NCBI GenBank assembly: GCA_902786275.1
Contig: CADACC010000002.1
Span: 7,600 to 71,599, forward strand
Direction of reading: 5' to 3'
DNA: 64,000 nt
Source of the DNA: an uncultured Erysipelotrichaceae bacterium
Lineage (GTDB): Bacteria; Bacillota_I; Bacilli_A; RF39; UBA660
Shown here one piece after another: positions 1-31,576 of this stretch; positions within the stretch are counted from its first letter, which is position 1; each line of letters opens with the position of its first letter. The notes under the pieces are model-generated. The model did not search any database. It was not told the origin of the DNA and saw only the letters and a list, made by a program, of their open reading frames with translations. Both the position numbers and the translations under genes were made by a program.

Positions 1-1
1 A

Positions 2-1777: not shown

Positions 1778-1790
1778 GAGAATATAAAAT

Positions 1791-2577: not shown

Positions 2578-2610
2578 AAGCATATAGTAATAAAAATAAA
2601 TTTAATTTTA

Positions 2611-2639
2611 TTGACATAATACCTTAAAAGTTAGATAAT
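2611..2639 (+). promoter_or_regulatory. sigma-A type promoter (TTGACA, 17 nt, GATAAT)
   Basis: Consensus -35 TTGACA at 2611-2616, a 17-nt spacer, and -10 GATAAT at 2634-2639. It lies upstream of the 2679 CDS. Confidence 0.4.
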
Positions 2640-2678
2640 TAAAGTATAAAATTTTTGGTTTAGGAGGAGAAAAGAATT

Positions 2679-3188: not shown

Positions 3189-3271
3189 TAGGAAATGATA
3201 AAAAAGAGTAAGATTTAAAATCTTGCTCTTTTTATTTTGCTACTATATAATTTAATAGTAGGTGATATAGT

Positions 3272-3991: not shown

Positions 3992-4097
3992 AAAATTGAT
4001 GATTCATCATCAATTTTTTTTATGTCAAATTAAGTTAATTACTAATTAAAACTCATTTATTATTTGATATACTAATTAAGTGTGAGGATGAATATAT

Positions 4098-6242: not shown

Positions 6243-6255
6243 AATTTATAATGTA

Positions 6256-6294
6256 AATACATCGCTTTATAAATCTAAGCGATGTATTTTTTTG
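6256..6294 (+). terminator. Rho-independent terminator
   Basis: AATACATCGCT … AGCGATGTATT + T-run. Confidence 0.7.
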
Positions 6295-6329
6295 TTTATT
6301 ATGTTATTATAAATAAAGGATGGTAGAGT

Positions 6330-7586: not shown

Positions 7587-7615
7587 AACATATACTTTTA
7601 TCATGGTGATAATAA

Positions 7616-8128
7616 TTGATAAAAGTCATATGTTTTTTTCTTTTAATAAGCATAAGTGATACTTTGCTTCATTTTACTTATAAATTGTCAAATAAAAGTA
7701 TAGTTGTTGGAATATTTTCAAGTGTTAATGAATCTGTTTGGGAGCATATTAAACTATTATTAACTCCTATATTTTTCTTTAATACTATAAAATATATATT
7801 AGGTTGTAGAAACAACTTTTTTATAGCTTTATTTGTAGAATTAGTATTATCAATAATATTAATAATTGTATTATCAAATTTAAAAGTAAAAATATTTAAA
7901 GATAAATATAACTATATAAATATAATAATATTTTATATAACTGCTTTTATAGTATCACTAGCTGGATATGTAACTGAGAATATAAATGTATGTAATAATG
8001 TTAATTTAATATTTTCAATTCCCTGTTTAGTTATTTTTATAATGTATTTAACATTTTCCGTATTTCCACCAAAGACTAAAATATTTCTTGATCCCATAAC
8101 TAATACTTATGGAATAAACAAAATGTAA
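7616..8128 (+). CDS. hypothetical polytopic membrane protein (TTG start, weak)
   Basis: 170-aa uninterrupted ORF in an AT-rich genome, very hydrophobic. No clear RBS, so the start is uncertain. Confidence 0.3.
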   Translation: MIKVICFFLLISISDTLLHFTYKLSNKSIVVGIFSSVNESVWEHIKLLLTPIFFFNTIKYILGCRNNFFIALFVELVLSIILIIVLSNLKVKIFKDKYNYINIIIFYITAFIVSLAGYVTENINVCNNVNLIFSIPCLVIFIMYLTFSVFPPKTKIFLDPITNTYGINKM

Positions 8129-8209
8129 ATAAAAGTGTACAATTGTACACTTTATTTAATTTAGTTTACGATATTTGTTATACTAATAGTAGAAAAGAGG
8201 TTTTCTATT

Positions 8210-8878
8210 ATGAGCAAAAGAAATCAAGAAGAATCAATAGAAGGATTTAATGATGCTGCAAAAACATATCACAGTTTAGTAGAATCATTAGAAAGAAGAA
8301 AATTTAAAAAGAAAAAACTTAAATTAACTGATGGAGGAAAAAAATTAATTGCTTCACTTATTTTAGCTGCAGCAATTCCAACATCTATATATGGTTTATA
8401 TAATTCATCTTGGGCAAAAAGAAATAGAAAATTAAAAGAAGCTCATAATTATGTTGATGAAGTTATAATAGCTCAAATTCTAGACGAAGAAGGCTATAAA
8501 CCAATAAATAAAGACCTTGATGTTAAAGTAACAAAAAGTAAAGAAGAAGTGGAAATGCTTGTAAGAAGAATTCAATCTGTAATGCATGTTGATAGAGATA
8601 CAGCTTATTATATTGTTTTCTCATATTATGGGTTTGATAAAGAAGTATTTAACAATTTAGGATATGCTAATGCAGATGAATGGGCAAAAGCACATGATTA
8701 TAAAAATCCTGGAGATTCTATGGATAGTTTAGTTTACAGTGCTGCTGATTCATTCGAAAACATGGCAGAAGAAGAATTCTTAGAAGCATATGATGAATAT
8801 GTTATAGCAGCAGAAAAAATAGGTAATGTTGATATACATGATGTTTCAAATGAGGTGAGTGGCAATGAATCAAGATAA
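8210..8878 (+). CDS. hypothetical protein (one TM helix); first gene of a pilin-containing operon
   Basis: RBS AAAGAGG precedes the ATG. It overlaps the next ORF by 20 nt and ends 224 nt upstream of the 9102 pilin gene. Confidence 0.5.
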   Translation: MSKRNQEESIEGFNDAAKTYHSLVESLERRKFKKKKLKLTDGGKKLIASLILAAAIPTSIYGLYNSSWAKRNRKLKEAHNYVDEVIIAQILDEEGYKPINKDLDVKVTKSKEEVEMLVRRIQSVMHVDRDTAYYIVFSYYGFDKEVFNNLGYANADEWAKAHDYKNPGDSMDSLVYSAADSFENMAEEEFLEAYDEYVIAAEKIGNVDIHDVSNEVSGNESR

Positions 8879-9095
8879 TGATTTAGAAGTAACTGCATAT
8901 GAAATAGATGGAAAAGATTACGTTATTTCCAAAATAGTTGATTATGAGGGAAGTAATTACTGTTATTTAGTTAATGTTGATGACGGACATGATGTATTTA
9001 TAAAAAAATACGTTGATGGAGAACTTGAACCAGTTGAATCAAAAGAAATAGCATTTAATGTTTTACTTAAGATTGGTAGTCAAGAGGAAGCGTAA
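8859..9095 (+). CDS. hypothetical small protein, translationally coupled
   Basis: 78 aa. The start overlaps the end of the 8210 gene. It ends 7 nt before the pilin gene at 9102. Confidence 0.45.
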   Translation: MAMNQDNDLEVTAYEIDGKDYVISKIVDYEGSNYCYLVNVDDGHDVFIKKYVDGELEPVESKEIAFNVLLKIGSQEEA

Positions 9096-9101
9096 GTTTA
9101 T

Positions 9102-9476
9102 ATGAATAAAAAAGGGTTTACTTTAATAGAACTTATTGCAGCAATCATGCTTTTAGGAATTATTTTAGTAATGGTTTCTTTAAATGTTGTTAGACACTTA
9201 GAGAAAAATAAAAGAAAAATAATTCTTGAAAGTGCCAAAAGTTATGTAACAGTAATTAATGATAATAATTATATAAATGATCCAGATAAAGTAATATCAA
9301 GTAGTACAGTTGAATCTATTAATCCAAAGATAAAAAAACAAATAGCAGGAGATTTACCTTCAAGTGGATCTGTAACTGTTAATGCTACAACTAAAAAAGT
9401 ATCTTCTGCAACACTGGTATTTGATAAATACAGAGTTGTATTTAATGGAACTAAATATACAATATCGGCTAATTAA
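9102..9476 (+). CDS. type IV pilin / pseudopilin (prepilin-type N-terminal cleavage/methylation domain, ComGC-like)
   Basis: MNKKGFTLIELIAAIMLLGIILVMV… has the class III signal peptide: G|FTLxE with Glu at +5 and a hydrophobic helix. Length is 124 aa. Confidence 0.75.
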   Translation: MNKKGFTLIELIAAIMLLGIILVMVSLNVVRHLEKNKRKIILESAKSYVTVINDNNYINDPDKVISSSTVESINPKIKKQIAGDLPSSGSVTVNATTKKVSSATLVFDKYRVVFNGTKYTISAN

Positions 9477-9511
9477 AAGTCTATTATTTTAGAAAAATAA
9501 TAGGCTTTTTT
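9477..9511 (+). terminator. Rho-independent terminator
   Basis: AAGTCTATTATTTT agaa AAATAATAGGCTT + TTTT. Confidence 0.55.
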
Positions 9512-9514
9512 AGT

Positions 9515-9543
9515 TTGACAAAATATAAGCAATAATCTATACT
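9515..9543 (+). promoter_or_regulatory. near-consensus sigma-A promoter (TTGACA, 17 nt, TATACT)
   Basis: -35 TTGACA at 9515-9520, a 17-nt spacer, and -10 TATACT at 9538-9543. It lies 37 nt upstream of the ATG of the large pilin-like gene. Confidence 0.5.
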
Positions 9544-9579
9544 AAATATAGTATGAAAAATAGAGTATGGAGAGTAGCA

Positions 9580-11968
9580 ATGAAGAAGAGAAACGGTTTT
9601 ACATTAATAGAACTTATTGCAACAATTGCAATACTTACAGTTGTATCCCTTGTTGCAACTATTACTTATAATAAAATTAGAAAAGATGTTTTAGAACATC
9701 AATATTTAAATTTAAAGACTCTTATTGAAACTGCTGCAATTAAATACTCATCTAAAAATGGATACTCTAGTTTTTTTGTTCAAGACTTAATTGAAAATGG
9801 TTTTTTAGAACCAGATGATGAAACAGATGTATATGACCCAAGAAACGATAAATCTTTAAATTGTCATATTTTAAGTATTAGTGTTGAAAAAAATGGTATG
9901 CTTTCAGCTGATATGAGTGATAAATCATATGATGAAAGTGGTAAATGTAAAACATCATCACTTGATATATATGAAGCTAATTTAAGAATGAATGCTAAGA
10001 TTGAAGGAACTAGTGTAACATATCCTGTTAATTCACTTAATACAGGTACTAGTGCTCCATATATCTTTGAAGGATGGACAAGATTTAATCTTGATATAAC
10101 AGCTGATCCATCAAGTATTCCTGAATCTCTTCAAAATGGTAAATATGTATGGAATAGAAATAATGATGTAACTACTATAGAACCTAATAGAACTATTACA
10201 ACTAATGAGTATGGTGTTTATAATAATTATTATTACTTAGATTTCTATACAGAAGCTGGTACAAGATATCAAGCTAAAATGTTATATAAATTTGATAATG
10301 AAAAACCAACTATCTATCGTGACTCTAATGGAAAAGATAGAATAAAGTTTGTTGATCAAGAAGATAATAATAGATGGGCTAAATCTAAAAATGTCTTTAT
10401 CTATGCATCTGATAAAAATGGATCTGGTTTAAGCAAAATATATATTGGACGTGAAAAATGTGAATACGCTCTTGAAAATAATTTAACAAGACCTGCAATT
10501 CCAGGTATCATCCAAGTTTATGAAGTAAAAATTGAAACTGGTGATGCTAGAAATCAAAATGAAGAATATAATGTATGTGTTATTGATAAAGCAGGTAATA
10601 TAGCTAAATCAAAAACTAAAGTTACACTTGTTGATATAACTCCTCCAAGATGTGATCATGTGTCACCTGATTTAGGATCTATTGATGAACCTATTATTAT
10701 GGCTAACTGGATTAGACCAGATAGAACAATTAGAACATTCTGTGCAGATGATCACTATATAACTGAAGATGGTGTTGAAAGACACTTATGGGGTTCTGGA
10801 TGTGTACAAGATTATTATGATAAAACATATTCACCAACTACTATAAATGGTACAACAGAAATAACAGATAATGTTGGTTGGGTTTCAACTTGTGAATATA
10901 GAGTTTTAGTTGATAAAACTCCACCTATATGTGGTGTATCTGAAGATGAATCAACTGTATGGCAATATGAAGATAGAACTATAAAACAACACTATCATGA
11001 TGAACATAGTGGTCCACTTGAAGATACAGTAAATGTTAAAACATTCGTACCAACAACTTTATGTTGATAAAACTCCTCCATACATTTCATATGCAAGATA
11101 TGGTAGTGGAGCATCATTTTATGAATCTAGTTGTCCTGGATTAATATCATTTACATGGACTGACGATGAAAGTGGATTTGCTTCAGGAACTCTTAGCGCT
11201 TGGTATGGAGGAACAAAAACTGCTGATGGTATGGAAACATCTGATGATGTTAATGCTAAGTTATGGACTAATTCATCAAGGACATCAAGATGTGCTCTTG
11301 GAAATTATAGATTTGAGTTACAAGGAACGGATAATGTTGGAAATAAGTCAGCTGTAAAAACTTATAGTTATTCTGTTATACCTGATCCGCCACCACCACC
11401 ACAACCTCCAAGCAATTCCGGTTGTAATTCAAACAAATTTGAAGAATTTAGGGTAAAAGATTCTCATAGCTGTACATATTATATGGAGGTTAGTTATGAT
11501 GAACAAAGATGTCCAAGGTATGGTTGCAAGGAAACTGAATCCCTTTCTGATCTAACATTTACATACTATGCTCAAAAAGAAGGAGAAGCTGTTGATAGGG
11601 CATATAATGCAGTATCTACATCCGCTAATGCAGTTGCCAATCGTATGGGTACACAAATGTATTCCGCTGGTGATAATGGAACACTGTTTATATGGGCAGA
11701 TTGCTCAGCAGGCTCAAATGGATTATCTTGTACAGATAATCGTGACGGTTTTGCTACGTCATATACTCTTGGTAAATCAACATGTTCTGATCCAGAACTT
11801 GTTACTTCTGGATACCATCTTGGTGAATACAAGGTAACATGTAAAGTCAAAAGAACTAGATGTTTAAAATATAAAAATGGCGGGGAATACATGCAAAATA
11901 GTTCTACAGAGTATGTATATTATTGTTGTAAATCATTAAATTCTGATACACATTGTAAAGTAAGATGA
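9580..11968 (+). pseudogene. large (about 800 aa) prepilin-signal surface protein with repeated …VDKTPP… boundaries and a Cys-rich C-terminal domain; interrupted by a frameshift near 11030-11067
   Basis: The N-terminus MKKRNGFTLIELIATIAILTVVSLVA is a class III signal. The frame-1 ORF ends at 11067 (…VPTTLC*). A frame-2 ORF opens at 11033 and immediately reads …LYVDKTPPY…, the same motif as RVLVDKTPPICG at about 10905. This indicates one gene split by a 1-nt indel. The C-terminal part carries a PPPPQPP linker and about 14 Cys. Confidence 0.6.
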
Positions 11969-12005
11969 TATAATATACGGTAATTACAAAAAAGGAAGTG
12001 TTAAT

Positions 12006-13169
12006 TTGAAAAAAAAATTATCAGTTATAGCTGCTAGTGCGGTTGTTATATCGACACTTGCATCATGTATGAATGCTAATAAAATCGAATCTCAAACATT
12101 TGAAACATATCCAAGCAGTGAAACTATAGTAAGTGAAACATCTGAGACATCTGTTGACACTACAACTATATCTGAAAGTAGTGATTTAGAAACATCTTAC
12201 ACAGTTGAAACAGCGCCCCATAGTAATCCACTTTTGGACTATGCTATGAGTAACCCAAGTGAATATGCTTTAAATGCGTATTTAATTATGTGTCCGACAG
12301 ATTATAAAGTGGATTTATCTTATGGATTTGATAATCCATACACAGTTGCAAAATTTCAAAGTTATGTTTACGATGTTACTGGAATTCAAGATAATTCATT
12401 AAGTTTATCTGATGTTTCATATTTTCAGTATACTAGCTACTTTGATGATTATTCATCTACTACATTTGCTGAAACCCTATATACATGCGATGTTGAGGCA
12501 GTTAGAGCAGTTTTAGTATCCCAAGGTCTTAGATTTGGAGTTGATGAAATACCTGCATCATATATACAAGAAAGATTTCCTATGTTTTATTATGATGCTA
12601 TGGCTTTTAATCGACCAAATAAAGCCCTTGTGGATTCAAATATGACAATTTTAGATCCAAAAACAATGACTAGCATTTGGGATCCTGAAACAGATTTGGA
12701 AAGGGATTTCAAACTATTTAAAGCATGCTTGAATTATAACTTTGCTAGAAGTTGTTACATGTATAATAACCCATACAATACAGCTCCTATTCAACAAGTG
12801 AGAGATGCAGCTACTGGAAAAAATATACTTTTGCCAACTGAAGACCAAGTCAAAGAATTACAGCAAGATATTAACAGTATCCCTGGATGTGAGAATATAG
12901 ATATATATAAAGTAGAAGATCGTCAAAGTTTCTATGACTGTTATGGATACTATCCAGAAGAATTAATAGATGCTCGTTGGGAGGGTAATACAAAAGAAGG
13001 CTTCCAAGAATATTATAATGGACTTTCTTCATCTGACCAGTATGAAATCTATGCTGTACAACCTCCAACATTTGTGTATACTTATTCTGCAGATACAGAT
13101 AGTTATGTTGTTACACAAACTACTTATGACTATTCTGATCCACAAAAAGGAAAAGGTAAATCTAGATAA
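12006..13169 (+). CDS. hypothetical lipoprotein (TTG start)
   Basis: MKKKLSVIAASAVVISTLASC contains the lipobox LASC. RBS AAGGAAG precedes the start. S/T/E-rich linker. A terminator follows at 13180-13216. Confidence 0.55.
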   Translation: MKKKLSVIAASAVVISTLASCMNANKIESQTFETYPSSETIVSETSETSVDTTTISESSDLETSYTVETAPHSNPLLDYAMSNPSEYALNAYLIMCPTDYKVDLSYGFDNPYTVAKFQSYVYDVTGIQDNSLSLSDVSYFQYTSYFDDYSSTTFAETLYTCDVEAVRAVLVSQGLRFGVDEIPASYIQERFPMFYYDAMAFNRPNKALVDSNMTILDPKTMTSIWDPETDLERDFKLFKACLNYNFARSCYMYNNPYNTAPIQQVRDAATGKNILLPTEDQVKELQQDINSIPGCENIDIYKVEDRQSFYDCYGYYPEELIDARWEGNTKEGFQEYYNGLSSSDQYEIYAVQPPTFVYTYSADTDSYVVTQTTYDYSDPQKGKGKSR

Positions 13170-17457: not shown

Positions 17458-17485
17458 TTAAACATAATAAGGGATTGTGAATAGT

Positions 17486-19447
17486 ATGAAAAAGAAAAAT
17501 GGTTTTACATTAGTTGAACTTATTGTTACTTTAGTAATCTTAATTGTCTTAACTTTAATTGCAACAAATATTATTTTAAGTCGTATAAATAAAACAAGAC
17601 AAGAAGCCTTTTTAGATAAAGTAAAAATATATATTAAAGGCTTAGATGCTGATGTTATGGATAACAAAGAATACGATGAGTTTAAGGTATATAACTTTCC
17701 AGGATATAAAATAAAAGCTGTTGATGAACAACCTGATGCTGGCTTCATTATGAAAAATGAAGATAATGAATACCGTGCTCAAATATGGAATAACAAACTT
17801 GAAAAATGTGCAGTAAAAGGTTTTTCAGATACCGATGTTAAAATATCTAAAACTATAAAAAATAAAGCAGACTGTGTATCAAGTTATGCATCAGCTAATA
17901 ATGTTATTGGACAAAGTATATATAATTTATTTGGTATTGAAATGAAAGATTCTGATGGAAATGATGTTGTTATTAAAGAATCTTGTTATACAGTTAATAG
18001 TAGTGGACAAATAACTGACTATGATGCTGACAAATGTGGTTATATTTTTATAACTCCAGATAAAATAGATGGTAAGGATATAACAGGTTTTAATACTGAT
18101 TTTTATAATAATTTAAGAAATAAGGATGTAACTGACTTTTATATAGCTAATGTTCCTAAACTTACAACAATCCCATCTGGATTTTTATCAGGCAATTCAA
18201 ATGTTAAGAATATTATGATTTATGGAAATCCTTTATTAACAGAAATACCTGCTGGATTCTTATCAGGTGATAGAAATCTAGATAGTGTAAGAATAATAAA
18301 TAATCCAAACCTTACCACTTTTGCTCAAGGTAATTTCTTCTTCAGTCAAACAGATCATGGATTTATTAAAAAAATAGAATTTGCTGATTTACCAAAACTT
18401 TCTACTTTCTCAGCTGTATTTGCTTATGTAGATTTTGAAGAATTTATTTTAAGAAATATTGGTGAGGACTCTGGTGATGGAATTCAAATAAAAGATAATG
18501 CATTAACAAACAATATAGGAGTTAATAACGCAAGACTTATTATTGAAGATAATAAAGGTTTATATTATGGTTCTGATGGTGCTATGTCATCATTCTATGC
18601 TGCAGATCACGATAAATCCAGTATAAGTTATGTGTCTATTAAAAATAATAAAAGACTAGATCTTTTATCATATAGTTTTCTTTGTAATGTTAAATATAAT
18701 AATGCAGAAATATATATTGAAAATAATGACTCTTTAACAGGTATTAGAAATAGTGCTTTTATTGGTGATGGTACTATAAAAAAATTAATTATTAAAAATA
18801 ATAAAAATTTAACAGGATTTGGTGAATCTGCATTAAGTGGTAATACATCAAATGGTGGACTACAATTTGTTAATGGCGATTTAATTATTGAAAACAATGA
18901 TAGCCTTGCGGAAATAACTAATAGTGCTATGGGTGGTTTAGCAGGAACAATTAATAAGTTCTCAATATCAAATAATAAGAGCTTATTAACATTTACAAAT
19001 GGAGCCCTAACAAATGATTCTAATAACAAACCAAATATAAAAGAATTTATTGTTAAAAATAATGCAAAATTATCAATTATTGACAATGGTACAATTTCTA
19101 ACTATAAGATTGATAAGGCAGTATTTGAAAATAATGCATCTCTTGATAATTTATGTCGATATAGTGCCTTTTCAAATAATGAGATAAATGTTCTTGATTT
19201 GTCCAAATCACAATTTACTACAGTTGAACCATCATGCGGAATATATAATAATTCAATAAATACCTTAATACTACCAACAACACTTACTAACTTTACACCA
19301 GGTCATTTAACAAGTGGTGTTAAAAAAGAAGTATATGCGGGTGGGCCAAATAAATGCGCACTTAATAACTATTTTATAAATTATAATCCAGATGGATCAA
19401 TAGCAGGATATAATGTTAATCCATCAATAGTGCCTGTTTGTGATTAA
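17486..19447 (+). CDS. prepilin-signal protein fused to BspA-type leucine-rich repeats (LRR_5-like), about 650 aa
   Basis: N-terminus MKKKNGFTLVELIVTLVILIVLTLIA is a class III signal. The C-terminal two thirds are tandem about 23-aa repeats (…IPSGFLSGNSNVKNIMIYGNPLLTEIPAGFLSGDRNLDSVRIINNPNLTTF…) typical of BspA/Treponema LRR surface proteins. ATG 17486 is preferred over the in-frame GTG 17477. Confidence 0.75.
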   Translation: MKKKNGFTLVELIVTLVILIVLTLIATNIILSRINKTRQEAFLDKVKIYIKGLDADVMDNKEYDEFKVYNFPGYKIKAVDEQPDAGFIMKNEDNEYRAQIWNNKLEKCAVKGFSDTDVKISKTIKNKADCVSSYASANNVIGQSIYNLFGIEMKDSDGNDVVIKESCYTVNSSGQITDYDADKCGYIFITPDKIDGKDITGFNTDFYNNLRNKDVTDFYIANVPKLTTIPSGFLSGNSNVKNIMIYGNPLLTEIPAGFLSGDRNLDSVRIINNPNLTTFAQGNFFFSQTDHGFIKKIEFADLPKLSTFSAVFAYVDFEEFILRNIGEDSGDGIQIKDNALTNNIGVNNARLIIEDNKGLYYGSDGAMSSFYAADHDKSSISYVSIKNNKRLDLLSYSFLCNVKYNNAEIYIENNDSLTGIRNSAFIGDGTIKKLIIKNNKNLTGFGESALSGNTSNGGLQFVNGDLIIENNDSLAEITNSAMGGLAGTINKFSISNNKSLLTFTNGALTNDSNNKPNIKEFIVKNNAKLSIIDNGTISNYKIDKAVFENNASLDNLCRYSAFSNNEINVLDLSKSQFTTVEPSCGIYNNSINTLILPTTLTNFTPGHLTSGVKKEVYAGGPNKCALNNYFINYNPDGSIAGYNVNPSIVPVCD

Positions 19448-19536: not shown

Positions 19537-20730
19537 ATGGAATTAGTACCAAAACTTGTTCTTGCTAAGAATTTATATTTTTCACTATCAACTGTTAGAA
19601 ATCAACATCACTTTAAAATGAGAGATATTGATTCACTTGATGCAAGAAAAATAAAGGGAAAAAAATATATATTAGTTAAACTAAATAGTGGTAGAACTTT
19701 TACAACACCACTTAGAGAATTTAAACTAAATAAAAAAGGTAAAATAGCCTTAGGAACATTATCAGTTTTAACTGCAGGAACAATTGCTGCATCAATTGCG
19801 GGTTTTAAATACACAAAAACTGATGATGGTAAAGTAAAAATAACAGATGAGAAAGTTTATGCAACTGCAGAAGATATATTTATTGATGAAGATGATAATG
19901 TAGTTGATTATACTAGTGATGAAATAAATTCAGTTGAGTATATTGCTAATGAAGAAACTGTAACCGATGAAGTTACTTTAGCGGAGGCAATGGATATTGA
20001 TGAAACAACTAGTGTAGATGAAACTCAGTATATAGAAAATGAATATAGTAATATTAGAACGTTATCCGTTGAAGGAGATTCAACAAGAGGTATTGATGCA
20101 TATAATAGAATAATAGATAACTATTATGATGATATTGTTAAATATGGTGAAATGTATGGAATAGATCCTGCTATTATTGCAGCTCTTATGATGGAAGAAG
20201 GCGGAACTACATATGATCCTAATGCTGAAGAAAACATGGGAGCAATCGGTTTTGGACAAGTAAGTTCTAGTGATTGGAATAATCATGAGTTTAATACATA
20301 TAACTTTATAACTGGTGAATATGATTATTACAAACTTGATGTAAATGACTTAAAAAATAATCCGACAAAACAAATCGAGGCAATTGCAAGAATGCTTCAA
20401 GAATCAGCTATTAGGTACCATGGTAATTTCTCAGCTATAACTGTTTGTTATAATCAAGGCTGTGGAACAGTTGCTAATATTACAAATAATTTAATAAATA
20501 GTGGTGATTATTCATCATCTATGGATGTATACAATAATGAAAATGCTTTATTAATATTTGAAAATGATCCATATACATATGGAAATAAAGATTATACAAA
20601 TAGAATTGTTACATATTTGGATGAAATATTAAAAAATGAAGTATTTGGTAGTAGCGTTGCTACTATTAAACTTCCAGATGGAAGTGTATTTAATTACGAA
20701 ACAAGTATTCAAAATGAACTATCAAGATAG
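19537..20730 (+). CDS. membrane-anchored lytic transglycosylase-like protein (SLT/GH23-type domain)
   Basis: TM anchor followed by …GEMYGIDPAIIAALMMEEGGTTYDPNAEENMGAIGFGQVS…. This matches the SLT motif pattern (E-S/G … GAxGLMQ). Confidence 0.55.
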   Translation: MELVPKLVLAKNLYFSLSTVRNQHHFKMRDIDSLDARKIKGKKYILVKLNSGRTFTTPLREFKLNKKGKIALGTLSVLTAGTIAASIAGFKYTKTDDGKVKITDEKVYATAEDIFIDEDDNVVDYTSDEINSVEYIANEETVTDEVTLAEAMDIDETTSVDETQYIENEYSNIRTLSVEGDSTRGIDAYNRIIDNYYDDIVKYGEMYGIDPAIIAALMMEEGGTTYDPNAEENMGAIGFGQVSSSDWNNHEFNTYNFITGEYDYYKLDVNDLKNNPTKQIEAIARMLQESAIRYHGNFSAITVCYNQGCGTVANITNNLINSGDYSSSMDVYNNENALLIFENDPYTYGNKDYTNRIVTYLDEILKNEVFGSSVATIKLPDGSVFNYETSIQNELSR

Positions 20731-21455: not shown

Positions 21456-22727
21456 ATGAAAAATAGTAAGGCTTTTACACTAATTGAACTTATAGCTGTA
21501 CTTGTTATTTTAAGTTTATTAACAGTTATAGCAGTTCCAGCTATTTCTCATTTAATAAAGAGAAATAAAGATAAATCATTTAATACAAAAGTAAATGTAA
21601 TTATTAAACAAGCTAAACAATATTCATATGATAATGAAAACTTTTTAAATGGTAGTAACAAAAAATACGATGGTTATGTATGTAATACCATAACTGTAGG
21701 AGAGTTAAAAAATCTTGGTTACTTAGAAGAATTAGAAAAAGAATCAGGAACTAATAAAATAACTGATCCTAGAACTAATGAATCTATGGAAAACTATACA
21801 GTTATGCTTTATATAAAAAGTAATACAACAGGAACTGGTACAAATAAAACTGCTGGTGCCTTGGTTGGAACTATAAAAAATATTGATAAATGTGAATCAA
21901 GTGGAGACATATTTATTTATACAGGAAGAGAAGAAGTTTTTACTGCAGCAACAGCGGGAAAATATAAAATTGAAGCCTGGGGTGCAGAAGGTGGATCTGC
22001 AAGTAAAACATACCGTGGTGGATATGGTGCATATTCATATGGTGAGATAACTCTTGCTCAAAATGAAAAACTATATGTAAACGTTGGTGGCCAAGGTGGA
22101 GTAACATTACAAGCAAATGTTATAGAACTTGGTGGATATAATGGTGGAGGAATTGCTGTTAATGGTAATTCTGACTCACTAAGTTTAAATGTTGGAGCAG
22201 GAGGTGGAGCATCGTCCGTTGCTTTATCATCTGGACTACTTAGAAGTTTTGAAAATGACCCATCACAAGTTATTATTGTAGCTGCTGGTGGAGGCGGAGG
22301 AAAATATTACGCCGATAGATACCATGCAACCGGTGGAGATGCTGGAGGAATTGCTGGTGGCGATGCCAAAGACTTACAATGGTATGATAACTACGGTCGC
22401 GGTGCATCTCAAACTGCAGCCGGTTGTAATTCAACTGGTGGAAGTTGTGGTTCATTTGGTGCATCTAACTTACCAGGTTCTCCAACACCAACAACTGGTG
22501 GTGGCGGAGGCTACTATGGTGGTTCTGGTGGACAATATGGTGGAGGCGGAGGCTCAAGCTATATAGGAAACTCTAGATTAACTAATAAAGAAATGTATTG
22601 TTATAACTGTACTGAATCATCAGATGCATCAACTAAGACAACTTCAACAACGTGTGTTGAAGCTGATGCAAAAATAAACTGTGCTAAAAAAGGAGCAGGT
22701 GCAGTTAGAATTACTCACGTTGAATAG
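21456..22727 (+). CDS. prepilin-signal protein with C-terminal glycine-rich (GGxGG-repeat) domain; paralogue 1
   Basis: N-terminus MKNSKAFTLIELIAVLVILSLLTVIAVPA. The C-terminal domain is …KIEAWGAEGG…YRGGYGAYSYGEITL…LYVNVGGQGG…GGYNGGG…AAGGGGG…GGGGGYYGGSGGQYGGGGGSSYIGN…AKKGAGAVRITHVE. Its motif order is shared with the three genes at 26727-31527. Confidence 0.75.
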   Translation: MKNSKAFTLIELIAVLVILSLLTVIAVPAISHLIKRNKDKSFNTKVNVIIKQAKQYSYDNENFLNGSNKKYDGYVCNTITVGELKNLGYLEELEKESGTNKITDPRTNESMENYTVMLYIKSNTTGTGTNKTAGALVGTIKNIDKCESSGDIFIYTGREEVFTAATAGKYKIEAWGAEGGSASKTYRGGYGAYSYGEITLAQNEKLYVNVGGQGGVTLQANVIELGGYNGGGIAVNGNSDSLSLNVGAGGGASSVALSSGLLRSFENDPSQVIIVAAGGGGGKYYADRYHATGGDAGGIAGGDAKDLQWYDNYGRGASQTAAGCNSTGGSCGSFGASNLPGSPTPTTGGGGGYYGGSGGQYGGGGGSSYIGNSRLTNKEMYCYNCTESSDASTKTTSTTCVEADAKINCAKKGAGAVRITHVE

Positions 22728-24797: not shown

Positions 24798-26315
24798 ATG
24801 GAAAAGCAAATGGAAAGACAATACGAAATAAATGATTTCTTAAAAACTTTATTTAGTTATAAGGTTGATAATAATACTGAAATAACACCTGAAGTTGTTT
24901 CTAGTTTTTTGTATACTTATGATCTTTCACCTGAAGAATTAAATTATACATATCGTAATATTTATCCTTACTTTGAAAAAGATTTTCAAAATACAAAAAC
25001 TAAAGTTCATGAAGATCCAAGACAAAAGAATTTCTTACAACTTAGAACAAGAAATAAATTTAATGATAATAATTATATAAAAATGTATATAAATGTTAAC
25101 CCAACATACATCTATAATGTTGTAAAACAAGTAATAGATTTTTTAAATGCAAATGGAATAGATCACAACTCAAAAGTAAGTTCTAGTCCAAGAAGTGATG
25201 GATTTGTTGTTAGATTAAAAAATGCATCTGATGCTAAAGCATTAGCTGATTATATTAATAATGATCAATCACTTGTAAGTGTTATAAGAAAACCTATACC
25301 TTTTATGTTTAGAGATGGTGTTGTAGGTTTATCATATGATAAGAATTTATCATATATAACAGTTTTAACTAATTTAATAACTAAATATATTAATAGTAAA
25401 GAAAATGCAAGTGAAATATCATATAAAGATTTCTGTCAGTTCCAAAGAGATAATATTTATAATATTTTCTCAGCTAAAAATAAACTAGCTGGTTTAAAAG
25501 AATTAGTATCAGGCGATGAATATAAAAAATCACTTGGTAGAATCAGAACTATTAGTAAAGCTTATATGGAAGAAGATTTGTTATCAAATTATTTAAATGT
25601 GTATAATGACTTAGCATTATCTACAATTGAAAATGATGAAAGTAAATATTATCAACTATATAATGGATTTACTAATACAGAACTTCAAAAGAAACAAGTA
25701 GCATCAATTACTGATCTAGTTTCTTTAGTTAAAAAAGATACTATTAATGAGAAGAAAGAATTAATAGATGATTATATTTTATATGCATATAATACATATA
25801 AGAACATAGATACTGTTAGAAAACAATTATTTGAATTTCAAAAAGGTCATTATAGCGCTATAACTAGAGATCAAAATTTTAGAGTAAGACTTGCTGATCT
25901 AGATGAAGAAGATTTAAGAACTATTACCAATCCAAGTATTGATAAATATATTAAAGATGTTTTAGCAAAAGAACTTAATGTCGAATCCGGTGAAAAAGGA
26001 ATCGATAAATATCAAATATTTATTAATGCTTGTAAGGCAACATATCAAACTCATGGTGTTGAGCAACTTAAAAAAGCAATAGAACTTGCTCTAACTAACA
26101 GAAACTATCAAGCATTTACAAATCAAAATGGTGGCTTTAGAAGAGAACTAATAAAATATGTTTTACCTGAAGAAGTTATTAATTTTGTAAATGAAACAAT
26201 TGAAAAGAATGTTAAAGTAAGAAATACATCAATTCCACTTCATGAAGAGTTTACAAATATATTTGTTGCACTAGTAATGCCAAATGAATCAATGTATAAA
26301 GGTTTAGCAGCATAA
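24798..26315 (+). CDS. hypothetical protein (505 aa), no recognisable domain
   Basis: Long uninterrupted ORF, probably co-transcribed with the small acidic ORF upstream. Confidence 0.5.
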   Translation: MEKQMERQYEINDFLKTLFSYKVDNNTEITPEVVSSFLYTYDLSPEELNYTYRNIYPYFEKDFQNTKTKVHEDPRQKNFLQLRTRNKFNDNNYIKMYINVNPTYIYNVVKQVIDFLNANGIDHNSKVSSSPRSDGFVVRLKNASDAKALADYINNDQSLVSVIRKPIPFMFRDGVVGLSYDKNLSYITVLTNLITKYINSKENASEISYKDFCQFQRDNIYNIFSAKNKLAGLKELVSGDEYKKSLGRIRTISKAYMEEDLLSNYLNVYNDLALSTIENDESKYYQLYNGFTNTELQKKQVASITDLVSLVKKDTINEKKELIDDYILYAYNTYKNIDTVRKQLFEFQKGHYSAITRDQNFRVRLADLDEEDLRTITNPSIDKYIKDVLAKELNVESGEKGIDKYQIFINACKATYQTHGVEQLKKAIELALTNRNYQAFTNQNGGFRRELIKYVLPEEVINFVNETIEKNVKVRNTSIPLHEEFTNIFVALVMPNESMYKGLAA

Positions 26316-26616: not shown

Positions 26617-26648
26617 AAAAGCAACGAATAATTTCGTTGTTTTTTTTA
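26617..26648 (+). terminator. Rho-independent terminator
   Basis: AAAAGCAACGAA ataat TTCGTTGTTTT + TTTTT. Confidence 0.7.
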
Positions 26649-26669: not shown

Positions 26670-26698
26670 TTGACTTTAATTTATTAAATAGATATACT
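26670..26698 (+). promoter_or_regulatory. near-consensus sigma-A promoter (TTGACT, 17 nt, TATACT) for the three-gene pilin/Gly-rich operon
   Basis: -35 TTGACT at 26670-26675, a 17-nt spacer, and -10 TATACT at 26693-26698. RBS AGGAGGT at 26713-26719 precedes ATG 26727. Confidence 0.55.
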
Positions 26699-26726
26699 TA
26701 TATTATATATAATAGGAGGTATATGT

Positions 26727-27977
26727 ATGCCTAAGTATAAAAATAATAAAAAGGGATTTACTTTAGTTGAGCTTTTAGCAGTTGTTATAATTCTAATAAT
26801 CATTATGACAATTGCAATTACTACTGTAAATAAACAAATGGAAAAAACTAGAAAGAATGCATTTGTTGCAGATGTAAATATTTTTATAAAAGCTGCACAG
26901 CAAAAATATTCATCTGATAGATCTAACCATGCTGCTGGTGAAGATTTATTTCATAATGCTATAGAGGGAAAAGTTTGCTATTCAATAGATCAACAATTAA
27001 TTGGTAAATACGCAGAAAAAACAAGTGAAAGTTATACTGGATCAGTTGAAGTATGTTATGGTGAAGAATGTGAATATGCAATTAAAGTGTGGGCAACAGA
27101 TGGAGAACATTATGTTGACGGGGCAACATATTTTAGAGATAAAAAAGATATCAAAAAGAAATATACAACTGATTATCCTTTAACTTGTGGTGTTGAAGCT
27201 TTAGGTGGCGGTGGAACAGGTGGAGACTTACTTACTGCTGAATTCGAATCTAGACCTGAAGAATATAAAATGACAATTGTTAAAGATGGTGTATATTCCC
27301 TAGAAGCTTGGGGAGGACAAGCAGGACGTTACATGGAACTTCGTGGTGGTTATGGCGGATATGCATATACTGAAATTGAACTTCATGTTGGAGACACACT
27401 ATACATTAATGTAGGTGGAGCTGGAGGCGATTATAGTTCTGTTACTGGATATGGTAAGGGAGGCTATAATGGCGGTGCTAATGGAGCCAGTAATAGACAT
27501 GCAGGTGGCGGAGGAGCTACTACAATAACAACAAAACCAGGTTTTCTTTATGATAATGTACTACCAGATTATGTTTATTTAGTTGCAGGTGGCGGAGGAG
27601 CTAGATCTGGTTCAGAATGCTGCTGCAATGCCATGACAAGTGGAAATAGTGGTGGAGGAGCATGTGATGAATCAAATAGAATTTGCCAGTCTAATCACAA
27701 TTACGGGAAAGCGACATACCCTGGTGCTGGTGGTGGGTTTAGAGCTCAAGCTTCAGATATAGGTTGTGGCTATCCATCAGGTGGATCAGGTTATATTGGT
27801 AATCCACTAACAAAAAATGGTGTTATGTATGGTTATAATGCTACTGAAAACACATCTGCAAAAACTAAAACTATACCAACTACAAATATAAGTGAAAAAC
27901 CAATCTCTGGTTATGCTAAACAGGGTGCAGGTTTTGCAAGAATAACTTATATAGGAACATTTACTAATCAAGAATAA
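26727..27977 (+). CDS. prepilin-signal protein with glycine-rich GGxGG-repeat domain and CCC motif; paralogue A
   Basis: …NKKGFTLVELLAVVIILIIIMTIAI… followed by a conserved globular region (…KVCYSIDQQLIGKY…GSVEVCYGEECEY…WATDGEHY…). The Gly-rich domain reads EAWGGQAGRYMELRGGYGGYAYTEIELHVGDTLYINVGGAGG…GGYNGG…AGGGGATTI…VAGGGGARSGSECCCNAM…GGSGYIGNPLTKNG…AKQGAGFARITYIGTF. Confidence 0.75.
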   Translation: MPKYKNNKKGFTLVELLAVVIILIIIMTIAITTVNKQMEKTRKNAFVADVNIFIKAAQQKYSSDRSNHAAGEDLFHNAIEGKVCYSIDQQLIGKYAEKTSESYTGSVEVCYGEECEYAIKVWATDGEHYVDGATYFRDKKDIKKKYTTDYPLTCGVEALGGGGTGGDLLTAEFESRPEEYKMTIVKDGVYSLEAWGGQAGRYMELRGGYGGYAYTEIELHVGDTLYINVGGAGGDYSSVTGYGKGGYNGGANGASNRHAGGGGATTITTKPGFLYDNVLPDYVYLVAGGGGARSGSECCCNAMTSGNSGGGACDESNRICQSNHNYGKATYPGAGGGFRAQASDIGCGYPSGGSGYIGNPLTKNGVMYGYNATENTSAKTKTIPTTNISEKPISGYAKQGAGFARITYIGTFTNQE

Positions 27978-28015
27978 GTAATATTATAGAAATATAGAAG
28001 AAAGTGGTGTTTAAA

Positions 28016-29245
28016 TTGAATAAGAAAGGATTTACTTTAGTAGAACTTTTAGCAGTTACAATAATACTTATAATTATTACAACTATTGTAATATTTACCG
28101 TTAATAAACAAATGGAGAAAAGTAGACTTAATGCATTTTTAGATGAAGCTAATGTATTTGCTAAAGCTGCTCAACAAAAATATTCAACAGATAGAACTAC
28201 CGAAGCCATTTCAGAGGATTTATTCCATAATGCAATAAAGGGGAAGGTTTGTTATTCAATTGAACAACAACTTTTAGGTAAGTATGTTGAAAAACCTAAT
28301 AGTAAATATACTGGATCAGTTGAAGTATGTTATGGACTTGACTGTGAATATACTTATAAAGTATGGATTACAGATGGAGAACATTACATTGATGGACAAA
28401 CTGAAATAAATGATTACAATGACATAAAAGAAAAATATACAACTGAGTATCCTTTGACATGTGGTGTTGAAGCTGCTGGTGGTGGAGGATCTGGCGGAGA
28501 CTTACTTACTGCAGAGTTTAAATTTTCAGGATCTCAATATGAAATGACTATTGCAAAAGATGGAGTATATGCTCTTGAGGCTTGGGGTGCTCAAGGAGGA
28601 CGCTTTGGAGAAACACGTGGAGGATATGGCGGATATGCTTATACAGAAGTTGAACTTCATGTTGGTGATAAACTTTATATTCAAGTTGGAGGCCAAGGTG
28701 GTGTAAACGGTGTTGGAAATCCAGGTGGATATAATGGTGGTGCAGATGGTCAAGGTTCCGGTGGCGGTGGAGCAACAACAATTGCAACCAAACCAGGATT
28801 CATATATGATCCTATATTAATTGATTATGTATATATCATTGCCGGAGGTGGCGGCGGAGTTGCAAGATGGTGCTGCTGCTGTGGTGGAATCTCTAGAGGA
28901 TTTAATGGTGGTGGATACTGTGCAGAACCTTCGCCTAATAGAGGTACTATTTGTCAAGCTGGACATAGTTATGGAAAAGCTACTGGCTACGGAGGCGGTG
29001 GAGGATATCGTGCCCAAAGTAGCCAAGTTGATAGTGATCATCATATGGGTGGATCTGGTTATATTGGTAACCCACTTACAAAAAATGGCATCATGGCTGG
29101 ATTCAACGTTCCAGAAAGTACTGCTGCAAATACAAGAACTATTAGTACAACAAATGTATCAGAAAAACCTATATCACAATATGCAAAACAAGGTGATGGG
29201 TTTGCAAAAATAACTTATATAGGAACATTTAGTGACCAAGAATAA
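28016..29245 (+). CDS. prepilin-signal protein with glycine-rich domain and CCCC motif; paralogue B (TTG start)
   Basis: Same architecture as paralogue A: …NKKGFTLVELLAVTIILIIITTIVIF…EAWGAQGGRFGETRGGYGGYAYTEVELHVGDKLYIQVGGQGG…ARWCCCCGGISRGFNGGGYC…GGSGYIGNPLTKNG…AKQGDGFAKITYIGTF. The start is placed at TTG 28016 by alignment with ATG 29287 of paralogue C; both are preceded by GAAAGTGGTG. Confidence 0.7.
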   Translation: MNKKGFTLVELLAVTIILIIITTIVIFTVNKQMEKSRLNAFLDEANVFAKAAQQKYSTDRTTEAISEDLFHNAIKGKVCYSIEQQLLGKYVEKPNSKYTGSVEVCYGLDCEYTYKVWITDGEHYIDGQTEINDYNDIKEKYTTEYPLTCGVEAAGGGGSGGDLLTAEFKFSGSQYEMTIAKDGVYALEAWGAQGGRFGETRGGYGGYAYTEVELHVGDKLYIQVGGQGGVNGVGNPGGYNGGADGQGSGGGGATTIATKPGFIYDPILIDYVYIIAGGGGGVARWCCCCGGISRGFNGGGYCAEPSPNRGTICQAGHSYGKATGYGGGGGYRAQSSQVDSDHHMGGSGYIGNPLTKNGIMAGFNVPESTAANTRTISTTNVSEKPISQYAKQGDGFAKITYIGTFSDQE

Positions 29246-29286
29246 AACTATATAAAGAATAAACCATTGAAAGTGGTGAAATATAA

Positions 29287-31527
29287 ATGAATAAAAAAGG
29301 ATTTACATTAGTAGAGTTACTAGCGGTTATGACACTTCTTCTTGTCATAATCTTCTTTGGTTTTAGAAATTTTATTAAATCTTTTGAAAAAAACAGAATG
29401 AAAACATTTTTATCTGAAGCTTTAATAATTTCAGAAGGTGCTCGAAATAAATATGCTGATGATAGATTAAATGAAGTTAATATCCAAGATGCATATTTTG
29501 GATCATCTGAAACTAGTACATGTTATGTATTTGAGTCAGCTTTAAAAGATAAATATGTATCTAAGTATAGTTACAAATATAGTGGATCTGTTGAAGTATG
29601 CCATGATATAGATTGTGACTATGATACAAAAATATGGCTTACTAATGGAGAGTTTTATTTAAACGGAGTAATAACTGATCATACATTAAAAAATACTGTA
29701 ATAGATTATAAATTTAATGATAATAATTATTTAACTTGTGGAGTTTCATCTAACACACTAAATCCTGCATATGCAATTGACTATACTGGTAAAGAAGAAA
29801 CAATTACTATTATAAGAGATGGTGTATATGCTTTAGAAACATGGGGAGCTCAAGGCGGACATAGAGGAACATATCGTGGTGGATATGGTGGATATGCATA
29901 TGACGAAATAGAACTTAGTGTTGGTGATAAACTATATGTAAATGTTGGCGAACTTGGAACTGATACTAAATCTGGTTATAACGGCGGAGGACCTGTTGGA
30001 AGTAATAGATCTGGTGGCGGAGGTGCAACTACAATTGCTGGTAAATCCGGTTTAATCAGTTCACCAATTGTTCCAGATTATGTTTATAATGTCGCCGGAG
30101 GTGGCGGCGGTGCTACTAGTTATTGCTGCTGCTGTGGTGGATATGAAACTGGATATAGCGGTGGAGGAGCCGTTAGTGAAAGAAATATAATCGGACAATC
30201 TGGATATAGCTATGGAAAAGCAACAGGCTACGGAGGCGGTGGAGGATACCGTGCACAAAGTGGTGATAATGGTGATGGTCGTGGACTAGGTGGATCTGGT
30301 TATATTGGTAATCCTCTTACATATAATGGTGTGATGTATGGGTTTAATGTTCCTGAAAACACTGGTGCAACGACCAAAACATATTCAACCACTAATGTAT
30401 CTTCAGAACCAATATCACGATATGCAAAACAAGGTAATGGTTATGCCAAGATAACATATTTATCTGAATTTAGTATTAAATATGATTTAAATGGTGGTAC
30501 AGTTCAAACACCTAATCCAACATATTATAGTCACACAAGTAGTGCTATTACTTTAAATAATCCAACTAAATATGCATATATATTTGATGGTTGGTTTGGA
30601 AGTAATGGACCTGTTCCACAAACTAATTTAACTATTCCATCTGGTAGTGTTGGTAACAAATTCTACACAGCACACTATGTACCAGTTGAATATTCAATTA
30701 CGTATAACTTAAATGGTGGATCATTTGGTGAAAATGCCACTCATCCATCTACATATAATATTGAAAGTAGCAATATAACATTAAGTGAACCAAAGAAAGA
30801 TGGTTATGTATTTATTGGATGGACAGGAAGCAATGGTGAAGATCCACAAAGAACTGTAACCATTTCAAATGGAAGTTCAGGTAATAAAACATATACTGCT
30901 GTATTTGAAAAGGTATATACTGTAACACTTGATTATAATATTGATAACTATACATTTGCATCTGATGGTTCATATATGGATTCAGGATTAATTCTTGATT
31001 TTGATAATAATTATAATATTAACATGGATGTAAATATACCAACATCTGGTAAGCGTTATTTACTAATCGGAAACTATAATACATCAAGGCAATTAAACTT
31101 AGAAATTACAACTGGTAATAATGTAAGAATCTATCAAAGTGGGGATAGAGGAAATACTGGCGCAATTACGATTGGTGAAGATGCAAACTTTGTATTTGAT
31201 TACACAGCTGCAAGTAAAGCATATAATGCAACGTTTACAAGTGCATCAACTAATGCATCAAACTCAGGTTCTTTAAGTCAAACTGGTTTTTCAACGGCAA
31301 CACTTAGACTTGGTCAGGATATGCGTGGTGGAGCAACATTTACTGGATATAACCTAAAAGGATTAAAAATAACATCAGGACTTACAATGAGTAAGCTTCC
31401 AACAAATGTATCACTTCCTGGTTCTAACTTTGTTGGTTGGTTTACAAGTAAAACTGGAGGAACTCAAGTTACATCATCAACTGTTCCAGCTTCAGAAAGT
31501 GTTACTTACTATGCTCGTTGGAATTAA
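29287..31527 (+). CDS. prepilin-signal protein with glycine-rich/CCCC domain plus C-terminal Listeria-Bacteroides (Flg_new) repeats; paralogue C (746 aa)
   Basis: MNKKGFTLVELLAVMTLLLVIIFFG…ETWGAQGGHRGTYRGGYGGYAYDEIELSVGDKLYVNVGELG…SYCCCCGGYETGYSGGGA…GGSGYIGNPLTYNG…AKQGNGYAKITY. These are followed by about 50-aa repeats: KYDLNGGTVQTPNPTYYSHTSSAITLNNPTKYAYIFDGWFGSNG / ITYNLNGGSFGENATHPSTYNIESSNITLSEPKKDGYVFIGWTGSNG / …FVGWFTSKTGGTQV…YYARWN. Confidence 0.75.
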   Translation: MNKKGFTLVELLAVMTLLLVIIFFGFRNFIKSFEKNRMKTFLSEALIISEGARNKYADDRLNEVNIQDAYFGSSETSTCYVFESALKDKYVSKYSYKYSGSVEVCHDIDCDYDTKIWLTNGEFYLNGVITDHTLKNTVIDYKFNDNNYLTCGVSSNTLNPAYAIDYTGKEETITIIRDGVYALETWGAQGGHRGTYRGGYGGYAYDEIELSVGDKLYVNVGELGTDTKSGYNGGGPVGSNRSGGGGATTIAGKSGLISSPIVPDYVYNVAGGGGGATSYCCCCGGYETGYSGGGAVSERNIIGQSGYSYGKATGYGGGGGYRAQSGDNGDGRGLGGSGYIGNPLTYNGVMYGFNVPENTGATTKTYSTTNVSSEPISRYAKQGNGYAKITYLSEFSIKYDLNGGTVQTPNPTYYSHTSSAITLNNPTKYAYIFDGWFGSNGPVPQTNLTIPSGSVGNKFYTAHYVPVEYSITYNLNGGSFGENATHPSTYNIESSNITLSEPKKDGYVFIGWTGSNGEDPQRTVTISNGSSGNKTYTAVFEKVYTVTLDYNIDNYTFASDGSYMDSGLILDFDNNYNINMDVNIPTSGKRYLLIGNYNTSRQLNLEITTGNNVRIYQSGDRGNTGAITIGEDANFVFDYTAASKAYNATFTSASTNASNSGSLSQTGFSTATLRLGQDMRGGATFTGYNLKGLKITSGLTMSKLPTNVSLPGSNFVGWFTSKTGGTQVTSSTVPASESVTYYARWN

Positions 31528-31539
31528 TTTATAAAGTTA

Positions 31540-31576
31540 AAAAACTTTTAGATAGTTAATCTAAAAGTTTTTTTAT
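31540..31576 (+). terminator. Rho-independent terminator ending the pilin/Gly-rich operon
   Basis: AAAACTTTTAG atagttaat CTAAAAGTTTT + TTTTATT. Confidence 0.7.

Follow-up and report, generated by a model that had tools for sequence, protein, structure and literature searches.

Three tandem genes in the genome of an uncultured, low-GC (~27%), spore-forming gut member of the Bacilli, whose RpoC clusters with proteins labelled 'Bacilli bacterium' at NCBI, raise the question of what a prepilin-type N-terminus is doing in front of a large glycine-rich domain (GRD). The genes lie on the forward strand of a 64-kb stretch of DNA, here called the window, which is identical to the European Nucleotide Archive (ENA) metagenome contig ERZ27280387:k141_74279. 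We propose that the three proteins are probably minor type IV pilins that show a variable ligand-binding module, and that they are likely to be sticky pilus subunits. The unit is an uncharacterised example of the known class of modular pilins, here carrying an ALK-type module, and not a new kind of system.

Architecture and predicted fold of the three proteins

Each protein begins with a class III signal peptide that has Gly-1, Phe+1, Glu+5 and a hydrophobic stretch. The leaders (slash, cleavage site) are MPKYKNNKKG/FTLVELLAVVIILIII in gene 1 and MNKKG/FTLVELLAV in genes 2 and 3. The N_methyl profile PF07963 scores 28.1, 20.4 and 23.2 bits for genes 1, 2 and 3, copy 2 being slightly under the cutoff of 21.2 bits, and TIGR02532 scores 18.8, 15.8 and 21.3 bits against a cutoff of 16.3. 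These scores, together with KKG/FTLVEL-type leaders in all three, bear out the class III prepilin signals called by an earlier sequence-only reading of this DNA. The same reading had proposed PF12810 for the glycine-rich part, and the family is confirmed in all three proteins at 58-71 bits (59.0, 70.6 and 58.4 bits; E 9e-16, 3e-19 and 1e-15; Pfam cutoff 24.5 bits), with matches that span profile positions 4-243 of 243. Flg_new (PF09479, cutoff 27 bits) occurs in gene 3 only, at 72.1 bits over three stretches, and TIGR02543 matches there at 77 bits against a cutoff of 21. The domain calls of that reading (class III signal, PF12810 and Flg_new) were therefore all correct, although the third copy holds three Flg_new repeats, the last of them split, instead of the two and a half that had been counted. 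A Pfam scan of the three proteins gave no kinase match. The genes and their parts are as follows (amino acids, aa; nucleotides, nt).

26727-27977, + strand: gene 1, modular prepilin, 416 aa (open reading frame (ORF), Pfam, NCBIfam)
26727-26756, + strand: leader of gene 1, MPKYKNNKKG/F (sequence)
27276-27953, + strand: GRD of gene 1, aa 184-409 (PF12810)
27618-27626, + strand: CCC cluster of gene 1 (sequence)
28016-29245, + strand: gene 2, modular prepilin, 409 aa from TTG 28016 or 413 aa from 28004 (ORF, Pfam)
28556-29221, + strand: GRD of gene 2, aa 181-402 (PF12810)
28871-28882, + strand: CCCC cluster of gene 2 (sequence)
29287-31527, + strand: gene 3, modular prepilin, 746 aa (ORF, Pfam, NCBIfam)
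29812-30462, + strand: GRD of gene 3, aa 176-392 (PF12810)
30124-30135, + strand: CCCC cluster of gene 3 (sequence)
30469-30912, + strand: Flg_new repeats 1 and 2 of gene 3, aa 395-542 (Pfam)
gene 3, aa 706-746, + strand: terminal part of the split third Flg_new repeat, which begins YTVTLDYN and ends ...YYARWN

Protein 1 runs from the leader through an alpha1 helix, a pilin head with four cysteines and a GGGGTGG linker into an ALK-like GRD. The order in protein 2 is MNKKG/F, alpha1 (aa 8-61), a beta-sheet head (aa 77-128), a GGGGSGG linker and the GRD. A GGGGxGG linker thus joins the pilin module to the GRD in copies 1 and 2, and in gene 3 the pilin module precedes the GRD without a glycine linker. 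Proteins 1 and 2 stop a few residues past the GRD, whereas protein 3 runs on into the Flg_new repeats, the third of which is interrupted by an insertion of about 150 aa that has no match in Pfam or NCBIfam. The insertion itself spans aa ~557-705, and its region (aa 543-705, nt 30913-31401) is the protein's most strain-variable part, with 16.6% of positions variable. Identity to copy 1 is 69% and 50% for the other two copies of the unit, and protein 1 has an identical copy on four metagenome contigs. With a pilin module over aa 1-~150, a short linker and a domain that is not specific to filaments, the pilin-GRD proteins have the composition by which modular pilins are defined.

The AlphaFold model of protein 2 (predicted local distance difference test (pLDDT) 91.8, predicted template-modelling score (pTM) 0.87) places a helix at residues 8-61 and a small beta-sheet head at 77-128, followed by the glycine linker and a beta-plus-coil domain, so that a long alpha1 helix, with about 55 hydrophobic-helix residues, is predicted on a small beta-sheet pilin head. 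When this model was compared with the PDB by Foldseek the best 21 matches were all ALK/LTK, with no solenoid among the matches. The fold of the GRD is therefore predicted, with high confidence, to be the TNF-like/glycine-rich (TG) domain of ALK/LTK (PDB 7LRZ, 7LIR, 7NX1, 7N00) and not the beta-solenoid-like or beta-helical module that had been proposed from the sequence. A profile of 54 homologues searched against the PDB agrees with this assignment (SCD-2 of C. elegans, E 5.5e-10; human ALK, 1.7e-7; LTK, 1.5e-4), and its N-terminus matches type IV pilins. Single-paralogue phmmer searches of the PDB returned pilin N-termini only, and the 54-sequence profile was needed to reach ALK. Against predicted viral structures Foldseek gave 86 matches at E <=1e-3, many of them tail-fibre or virion proteins. 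In the profile comparison with the PDB the GGYNGG...GGGGAT region also resembled the C-terminal domain of phage T4 baseplate gp10 at E 0.02-0.1, below significance, which is compatible with a relationship to phage fibres. DSSP leaves the glycine blocks of the model unassigned, a result compatible with polyglycine-II helices but no demonstration of them. The AlphaFold2 model of gene 3 has pLDDT above 80 up to aa 392, 70-85 in Flg_new repeats 1-2, and below 50 for aa 543-703.

The sequence-only reading held that the proteins belong to no described pilus class, which overstates the case, since modular pilins are described and widespread and the N_methyl-PF12810 combination is already catalogued (PMC8179133). 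In S. sanguinis, PilB and PilC are pilins onto which adhesive modules, vWA and lectin respectively, have been grafted, and they are proposed to be at the pilus tip; a database survey found more than 1,200 modular pilins in 264 architectures (Raynaud et al. 2021, PMC8179133). Dataset S1 of that survey lists 'IPR012902 - PF12810' (2 proteins), a triple-PF12810 form (1 protein) and IPR012902 with two Listeria-Bacteroides repeats (9 proteins), and Dataset S2 lists one PilY1 architecture with PF12810 (PMC8179133). In the literature searched we found no paper that discusses prepilin-GRD proteins beyond this catalogue listing. Like S. sanguinis PilB and PilC (PMC8179133, PMC9934059), the proteins combine a class III signal, a small pilin module, a short linker and a bulky module foreign to the pilus, in monoderm hosts and with adhesion as the predicted role. 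They differ in that the graft is an ALK-like TNF-like/glycine-rich domain, unstudied in any pilin, in that the genes here lie outside a pil operon and form tandem arrays (3+1, and at least 8 in a sister species), and in being known from sequence alone. PilY1/PilC proteins with PF12810 bear the same GRD on a pilus-tip carrier, which suggests that the domain is reused as a pilus-displayed effector, although their carrier is a non-pilin beta-propeller and their hosts are diderm.

With ALK/LTK the proteins have only the domain in common. No EGF-like module or transmembrane kinase follows the GRD and there is no ALKAL ligand, and membership of the receptor tyrosine kinase family as whole proteins was rejected. 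The proteins are bacterial and start with a pilin N-terminus, and the stretches between their glycine blocks are unrelated and rich in cysteine. Receptor-binding fibre tips with glycine-rich domains are also known from phages, here cyanophage Pam3 gp24, Salmonella phage S16 gp38 and mycobacteriophage Bxb1 gp33. In the Pam3 tail fibre the domains of TNF-like and of glycine-rich type form the receptor-recognising part, in which the glycine stems are conserved and the distal tip is hypervariable, and the study notes similarity to ALK 7LIR and to S16 gp38 (PMC9608196). Phage fibre-tip proteins require chaperones and attach as trimers to baseplates or fibres, whereas the pilin-GRDs are carried by a prepilin helix; the chromosomal housekeeping context, with no phage genes nearby, and the prepilin N-terminus exclude them from the phage receptor-binding proteins. 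Pilins of the Com pilus (ComGC/GD/GE/GF) are alike in their N-terminal 50-70 residues and in their monoderm Bacilli hosts. The proteins studied here are 3-6 times larger, have no comGA/GB context, and match the NCBIfam families by their N-termini only and far below cutoff (ComGD 31.9 against 70, ComGC 28.9 against 75, ComGE 24.4 against 49), and membership of the Com pilus was rejected.

Family, variability and proposed role

The three-gene unit belongs to a multigene family. The pilin-GRD combination is common in metagenomes: a protein search gave 1562 proteins at E <=1e-3 among the candidates scored, and more than 80 of the best 120 homologues have a KKGFTLVEL-type leader. When the GRD alone was the query, 1905 cluster representatives among 1.84 billion were found (645 at <=1e-10); a canonical prepilin leader is present in 56 of the best 150 matches, and others among these are proteins with ordinary signal anchors or giant multi-GRD proteins. 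The giant predicted proteins (P0306, P0307, P0312, P0324, P0371 and others) have 4,000-7,000 residues and up to 12 GRD stretches. Non-pilin signal anchors such as MKKTTILIIVVLFMVIGYAAYNTTINIYG also precede GRDs, and no NCBIfam family was found for these non-pilin N-termini. Sister species (L084, L086) hold pilin-GRD genes in two conserved slots, engB-[pilin-GRD]-der and spoVIF-[pilin-GRD array]-spoIVA-hbs-rpoB, but the copies there number two or three and have different C-terminal additions. In one sister species a further array, on a 178-kb contig (L095), has at least eight tandem pilin-GRD genes over 1-12106, seven of them complete, with KKGFTLVEL-type leaders, sizes of 425, 602, 402, 419, 427, 747, 434 and 701 aa, 33-50% mutual identity and spacing of ~95-120 nt; four more pilin-GRD genes occur elsewhere in that species. 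The trio had been described as self-contained, which holds for its boundaries at two terminators, but with a fourth paralogue in the window and a multigene family around it the unit is not a lone trio.

Among 54 diverged homologues the leader residues F6, T7 and E10 never vary, and conservation of G5 is at least 90%. That Gly-1, Phe+1 and Glu+5 hardly vary indirectly indicates that processing and filament packing are still under selection. The four cysteines of the head are likewise kept in 52/54 homologues. Beyond the glycine blocks the picture is one of divergence, in that the segment after VAGGGGG is unalignable among homologues and variation is concentrated between the blocks. The CCC(C) cluster emphasised by the sequence-only reading is present in all three copies, but it is not a feature of the family: it is restricted to homologues at least ~60% identical and stands at the start of the hypervariable stretch that cannot be aligned between homologues. 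As a lineage-specific element in such a stretch it is not supported as a conserved functional motif, for example a metal site. The number of GRD cysteines is even in 45 of the 54 homologues, and even counts favour disulfide stapling of the variable loops as the probable role of these residues. Between strains, substitutions in gene 1 affect 28/256 positions of the GRD and 8/160 of the pilin module, about twice the density (p 0.047), and gene 3 follows the same trend.

The DNA identity among the three copies is 68-83%. The lack of long identical tracts and of an invertible element marks the copies as old duplicates, not as parts of a system that switches cassettes. A check for silent cassettes, an invertible promoter or recent gene conversion found none, the only local inverted repeat being the terminator. 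The GC content of the genes is 0.32-0.34 against ~0.26, which we attribute to their many GGN glycine codons. Horizontal transfer was rejected as the source of the raised GC, since rpoBC rises likewise and synteny is conserved.

A direct link between GRD pilins and pilus assembly genes comes from two diverged metagenome-assembled genomes of Bacilli, L026 (labelled Mycoplasmatota at NCBI) and L094 (a 959-kb contig).

L026, 3226-10365: compact pilus cluster in which pilC and pilD adjoin a divergently transcribed pilB, then a prepilin-like gene of 323 aa and a prepilin-Ig-like-GRD gene
L094, 7314-14754: compact pilus cluster with the same gene set

The prepilin-Ig-like-GRD genes encode 526 or 537 aa, and pilC is an unusually long T2SSF gene of 743-763 aa. 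The two clusters are 81% identical in PilB, 51% in the GRD pilin and 41% in the 323-aa partner, which belongs to a narrow family (a search yielded 37 proteins). Neither cluster shows an evident small major pilin.

We therefore favour, as the most probable account, minor type IV pilins with an exposed binding module. In this mechanism a prepilin peptidase would cut after Gly-1, and the alpha1 helix would insert the subunit into a type IV filament made mainly of small pilins. The GRD pilin would probably be of low abundance and located at the tip, as proposed for other bulky modular pilins. The variable stretches that separate the conserved glycine blocks of the exposed GRD would then let it bind an external ligand, as ALK does with its cytokine and as phage receptor-binding proteins do, and different paralogues would have different specificities. 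The CCC(C) cluster, with other cysteines of the GRD, would most likely staple the variable loops, and in copy 3 the Flg_new repeats and the insertion may serve as a further stalk or binding part.

Several observations weigh against this proposal. The readable part of the window's genome comes to about 84 kb (the 64-kb window plus flanks of 9.6 kb and 10 kb from the same contig or sibling contigs), and Pfam scans of 50 window ORFs, a motif scan of the window and 83 collected loci, and scans of both flanks revealed no T2SSE (PilB), T2SSF (PilC) or A24 peptidase (PilD) within it. Nor were PilB, PilC or PilD found beside the pilin-GRD arrays of the sister species. A protein search seeded with a relative's PilB missed this lineage, the best 120 matches all being at least 80% identical to the seed, and none of the 37 proteins obtained with the relatives' 323-aa pilin partner came from it. 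A sister genome holds at least 12 copies, and the role of a rare tip subunit is not obvious for all of them. The strain-variation signal in the GRD is weak and is not seen in the fourth paralogue. No bacterial GRD has a known ligand.

The chief competing account is display at the cell surface with no long pilus, in which the class III N-terminus would mainly anchor the protein in the membrane or form the base of a short pseudopilus or of a bindosome-like structure, and the proteins would make up a cell-bound repertoire of receptors or adhesins. The setting of the genes fits such a repertoire: over 64 kb, eight prepilin-type genes lie dispersed as single genes between housekeeping genes, with no assembly genes nearby, and the family is very large, with at least eight tandem and four further copies in one sister species. 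The proteins are also bulky as filament subunits, at 40-80 kDa, and GRDs occur behind ordinary signal anchors and in multi-GRD proteins of 4-7 thousand residues. A mere anchor, however, would not be expected to keep Gly-1, Phe+1 and Glu+5 near-invariant, as peptidase cleavage and filament packing would; the predicted fold of the pilin head is also kept, and in relatives GRD pilins stand within pilBCD clusters. On balance we regard display without a long pilus as possible but rather unlikely.

A purely structural role for the GRD, as a rigid, ice- or mineral-facing lattice or as a self-association module for aggregation or biofilm instead of specific receptor binding, appears improbable. Polyglycine-II/polyproline-II (PPII) bundles do occur in antifreeze-type and other structural proteins (PMC13243192), no ligand is at hand, and the conserved part is the glycine scaffold itself; yet each of the homologues with a solved structure (ALK/LTK and the fibre tips of phages) binds a ligand or receptor, and variation is concentrated between the glycine blocks. 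Still less probable, to the point of being very doubtful, is a sporulation-linked appendage with spore-surface fibres encoded by an operon that lies between spoVIF and spoIVA, since the upstream gene ends in a terminator, the candidate promoter belongs to the sigma-A type, and neither the large array of L095 nor the pilBCD-linked copies are beside sporulation genes. The der-spoIVA-hbs neighbourhood presumably resembles the B. subtilis map, and the proximity to sporulation genes could therefore be incidental.

If the proteins are pilus-displayed binders, an unstudied effector module of the ALK type (TNF-like/polyglycine) would be added to the modular-pilin toolbox, a module whose other known settings are an oncogenic human receptor and the host-recognition tips of phages, and the main surface-interaction genes would be pinpointed in little-known, uncultured gut Bacilli with small genomes. 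The paralogue arrays constitute a natural series of scaffold-identical, loop-variable binders from which ligand recognition by a rare fold could be learned, and the bacterial and phage homologues are relevant to where the ligand-binding region of ALK/LTK came from. Interest is raised by the size and diversification of the family, by the GRD pilin inside minimal pilBCD clusters and by the three-way relationship of phage tip, ALK and pilin. Tentatively, and with the weight of probability on the other side, one may go further and suppose that in reduced-genome gut Bacilli the prepilin/type IV filament route has become a general means of surface display. Each ~1-Mb genome would then display at least 12 diversifying TG/GRD adhesins akin to phage receptor-binding proteins, encoded in tandem arrays and bearing hypervariable loops stapled by cysteines. 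The pilin-GRD would act as core partner, not as occasional accessory, of a minimal pilBCD machine, and the bacterial and phage pool of modules would be the source of the ALK/LTK ligand-binding region.

Layout of the probable transcription unit

The three ORFs stand in tandem as the sequence-only reading placed them, and the signals around them are as follows (ribosome-binding site, RBS).

26617-26644, + strand: intrinsic terminator of spoVIF, 12-bp stem and U8 (fold -12.3 kcal/mol, z -5.2, 0/200 shuffles as good)
26670-26698, + strand: candidate sigma-70/sigma-A-like promoter, TTGACT-17 nt-TATACT (10/12 matches)
26714-26719, + strand: RBS AGGAGG of gene 1, 7 nt 5' of ATG 26727
31539-31573, + strand: closing intrinsic terminator, 15-bp AT-rich stem, 5-nt loop (fold -16.3 kcal/mol, z -5.0, 0/200 shuffles)

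The spoVIF terminator insulates the unit from upstream transcription. The hairpin at the other end (-16.3 kcal/mol, z -5.0) substantiates the terminator that had been proposed to close the unit; its U-run is part of the stem as well as the tail, and a consensus terminator scanner missed it because it has few G-C pairs and the scanner requires three. Folding against shuffles found no significant hairpin in either intergenic gap. Three co-directional genes between two intrinsic terminators are well supported, on the evidence of layout, as one putative transcription unit, and in this respect the proposed operon stands.

The gaps of 38 and 41 nt depend on gene 2 starting at TTG 28016, for which gene callers pick GTG 28004 or 28007 as alternatives. 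The RBS-like motif GAAAGTGGTG lies 6 nt 5' of TTG 28016 and 8 nt 5' of the ATG of gene 3, and because it is at RBS distance in both places TTG 28016 is the most likely start, which makes the gap lengths given earlier plausible as well. The sigma-A promoter of that reading is present as a TTGACT-17-TATACT match and is well placed before the RBS, but the match is not statistically distinctive. This AT-rich DNA holds 31 promoter-like sites where 38 are expected from shuffles, and since such sites are not enriched the promoter at 26670-26698 is a candidate backed by its position.

Other prepilin genes and neighbours in the window

The window holds eight prepilin-type genes in all, namely the three of the unit and those that begin at 21456, 9102, 9553, 17477 and 63537.

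21456-22727, + strand: fourth pilin-GRD paralogue, 423 aa, between engB and der (PF12810 E 4.8e-35, 122 bits; N_methyl 28.3 bits)
17477-19447, + strand: modular prepilin, 656 aa, with an LRR-like C-terminal region (N_methyl 28.9 bits, weak LRR_8 match)
19537-20730: SLT lytic-transglycosylase gene after the preceding prepilin (SLT E 3.5e-8)
9102-9476, + strand: small prepilin, 124 aa, MNKKG/FTLIEL (N_methyl 29.9 bits, motif scan)
63537-63947, + strand: small prepilin, 136 aa, MNKNG/FTFIEL, just upstream of fmt (motif scan, faint N_methyl match)
9553-11968: prepilin-like ORF of 504 aa overlapping an ORF of 311 aa (sibling-strain comparison)

The fourth paralogue has the strongest and most canonical GRD, is 35% identical to gene 1 and lacks the CCC cluster. 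The two small prepilins, each alone amid housekeeping genes, are candidate conventional pilins for a filament that bears the large modular subunits. The modular prepilin with the LRR-like region belongs to the same set of surface proteins as the pilin-GRDs. Sibling strains (L090-L093) have one N_methyl gene of 816-819 aa where the window has the 504-aa and 311-aa ORFs. Compared with L092 the window is 100% identical apart from 61 bp that it lacks at 11058, a frame-shifting difference that reflects either a true deletion or an error of assembly. DNA similarity to three further strains (98.7%) ends at 11057, and the 3' part of this large pilin-like gene therefore differs between strains.

The slot between der and spoVIF holds, in sister species, genes of 382 and 332 aa without a Pfam match; in the window its occupant is a 505-aa protein (24798-26315) with a weak match to the HopA1 effector family (23.5 bits against a cutoff of 22.7). 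The pair formed by the LRR-like prepilin and the SLT gene recurs in a sister species (L084), with LRR_5 faint in another (L086), and a wall-cutting SLT enzyme beside a pilin could aid the passage of a filament through peptidoglycan.

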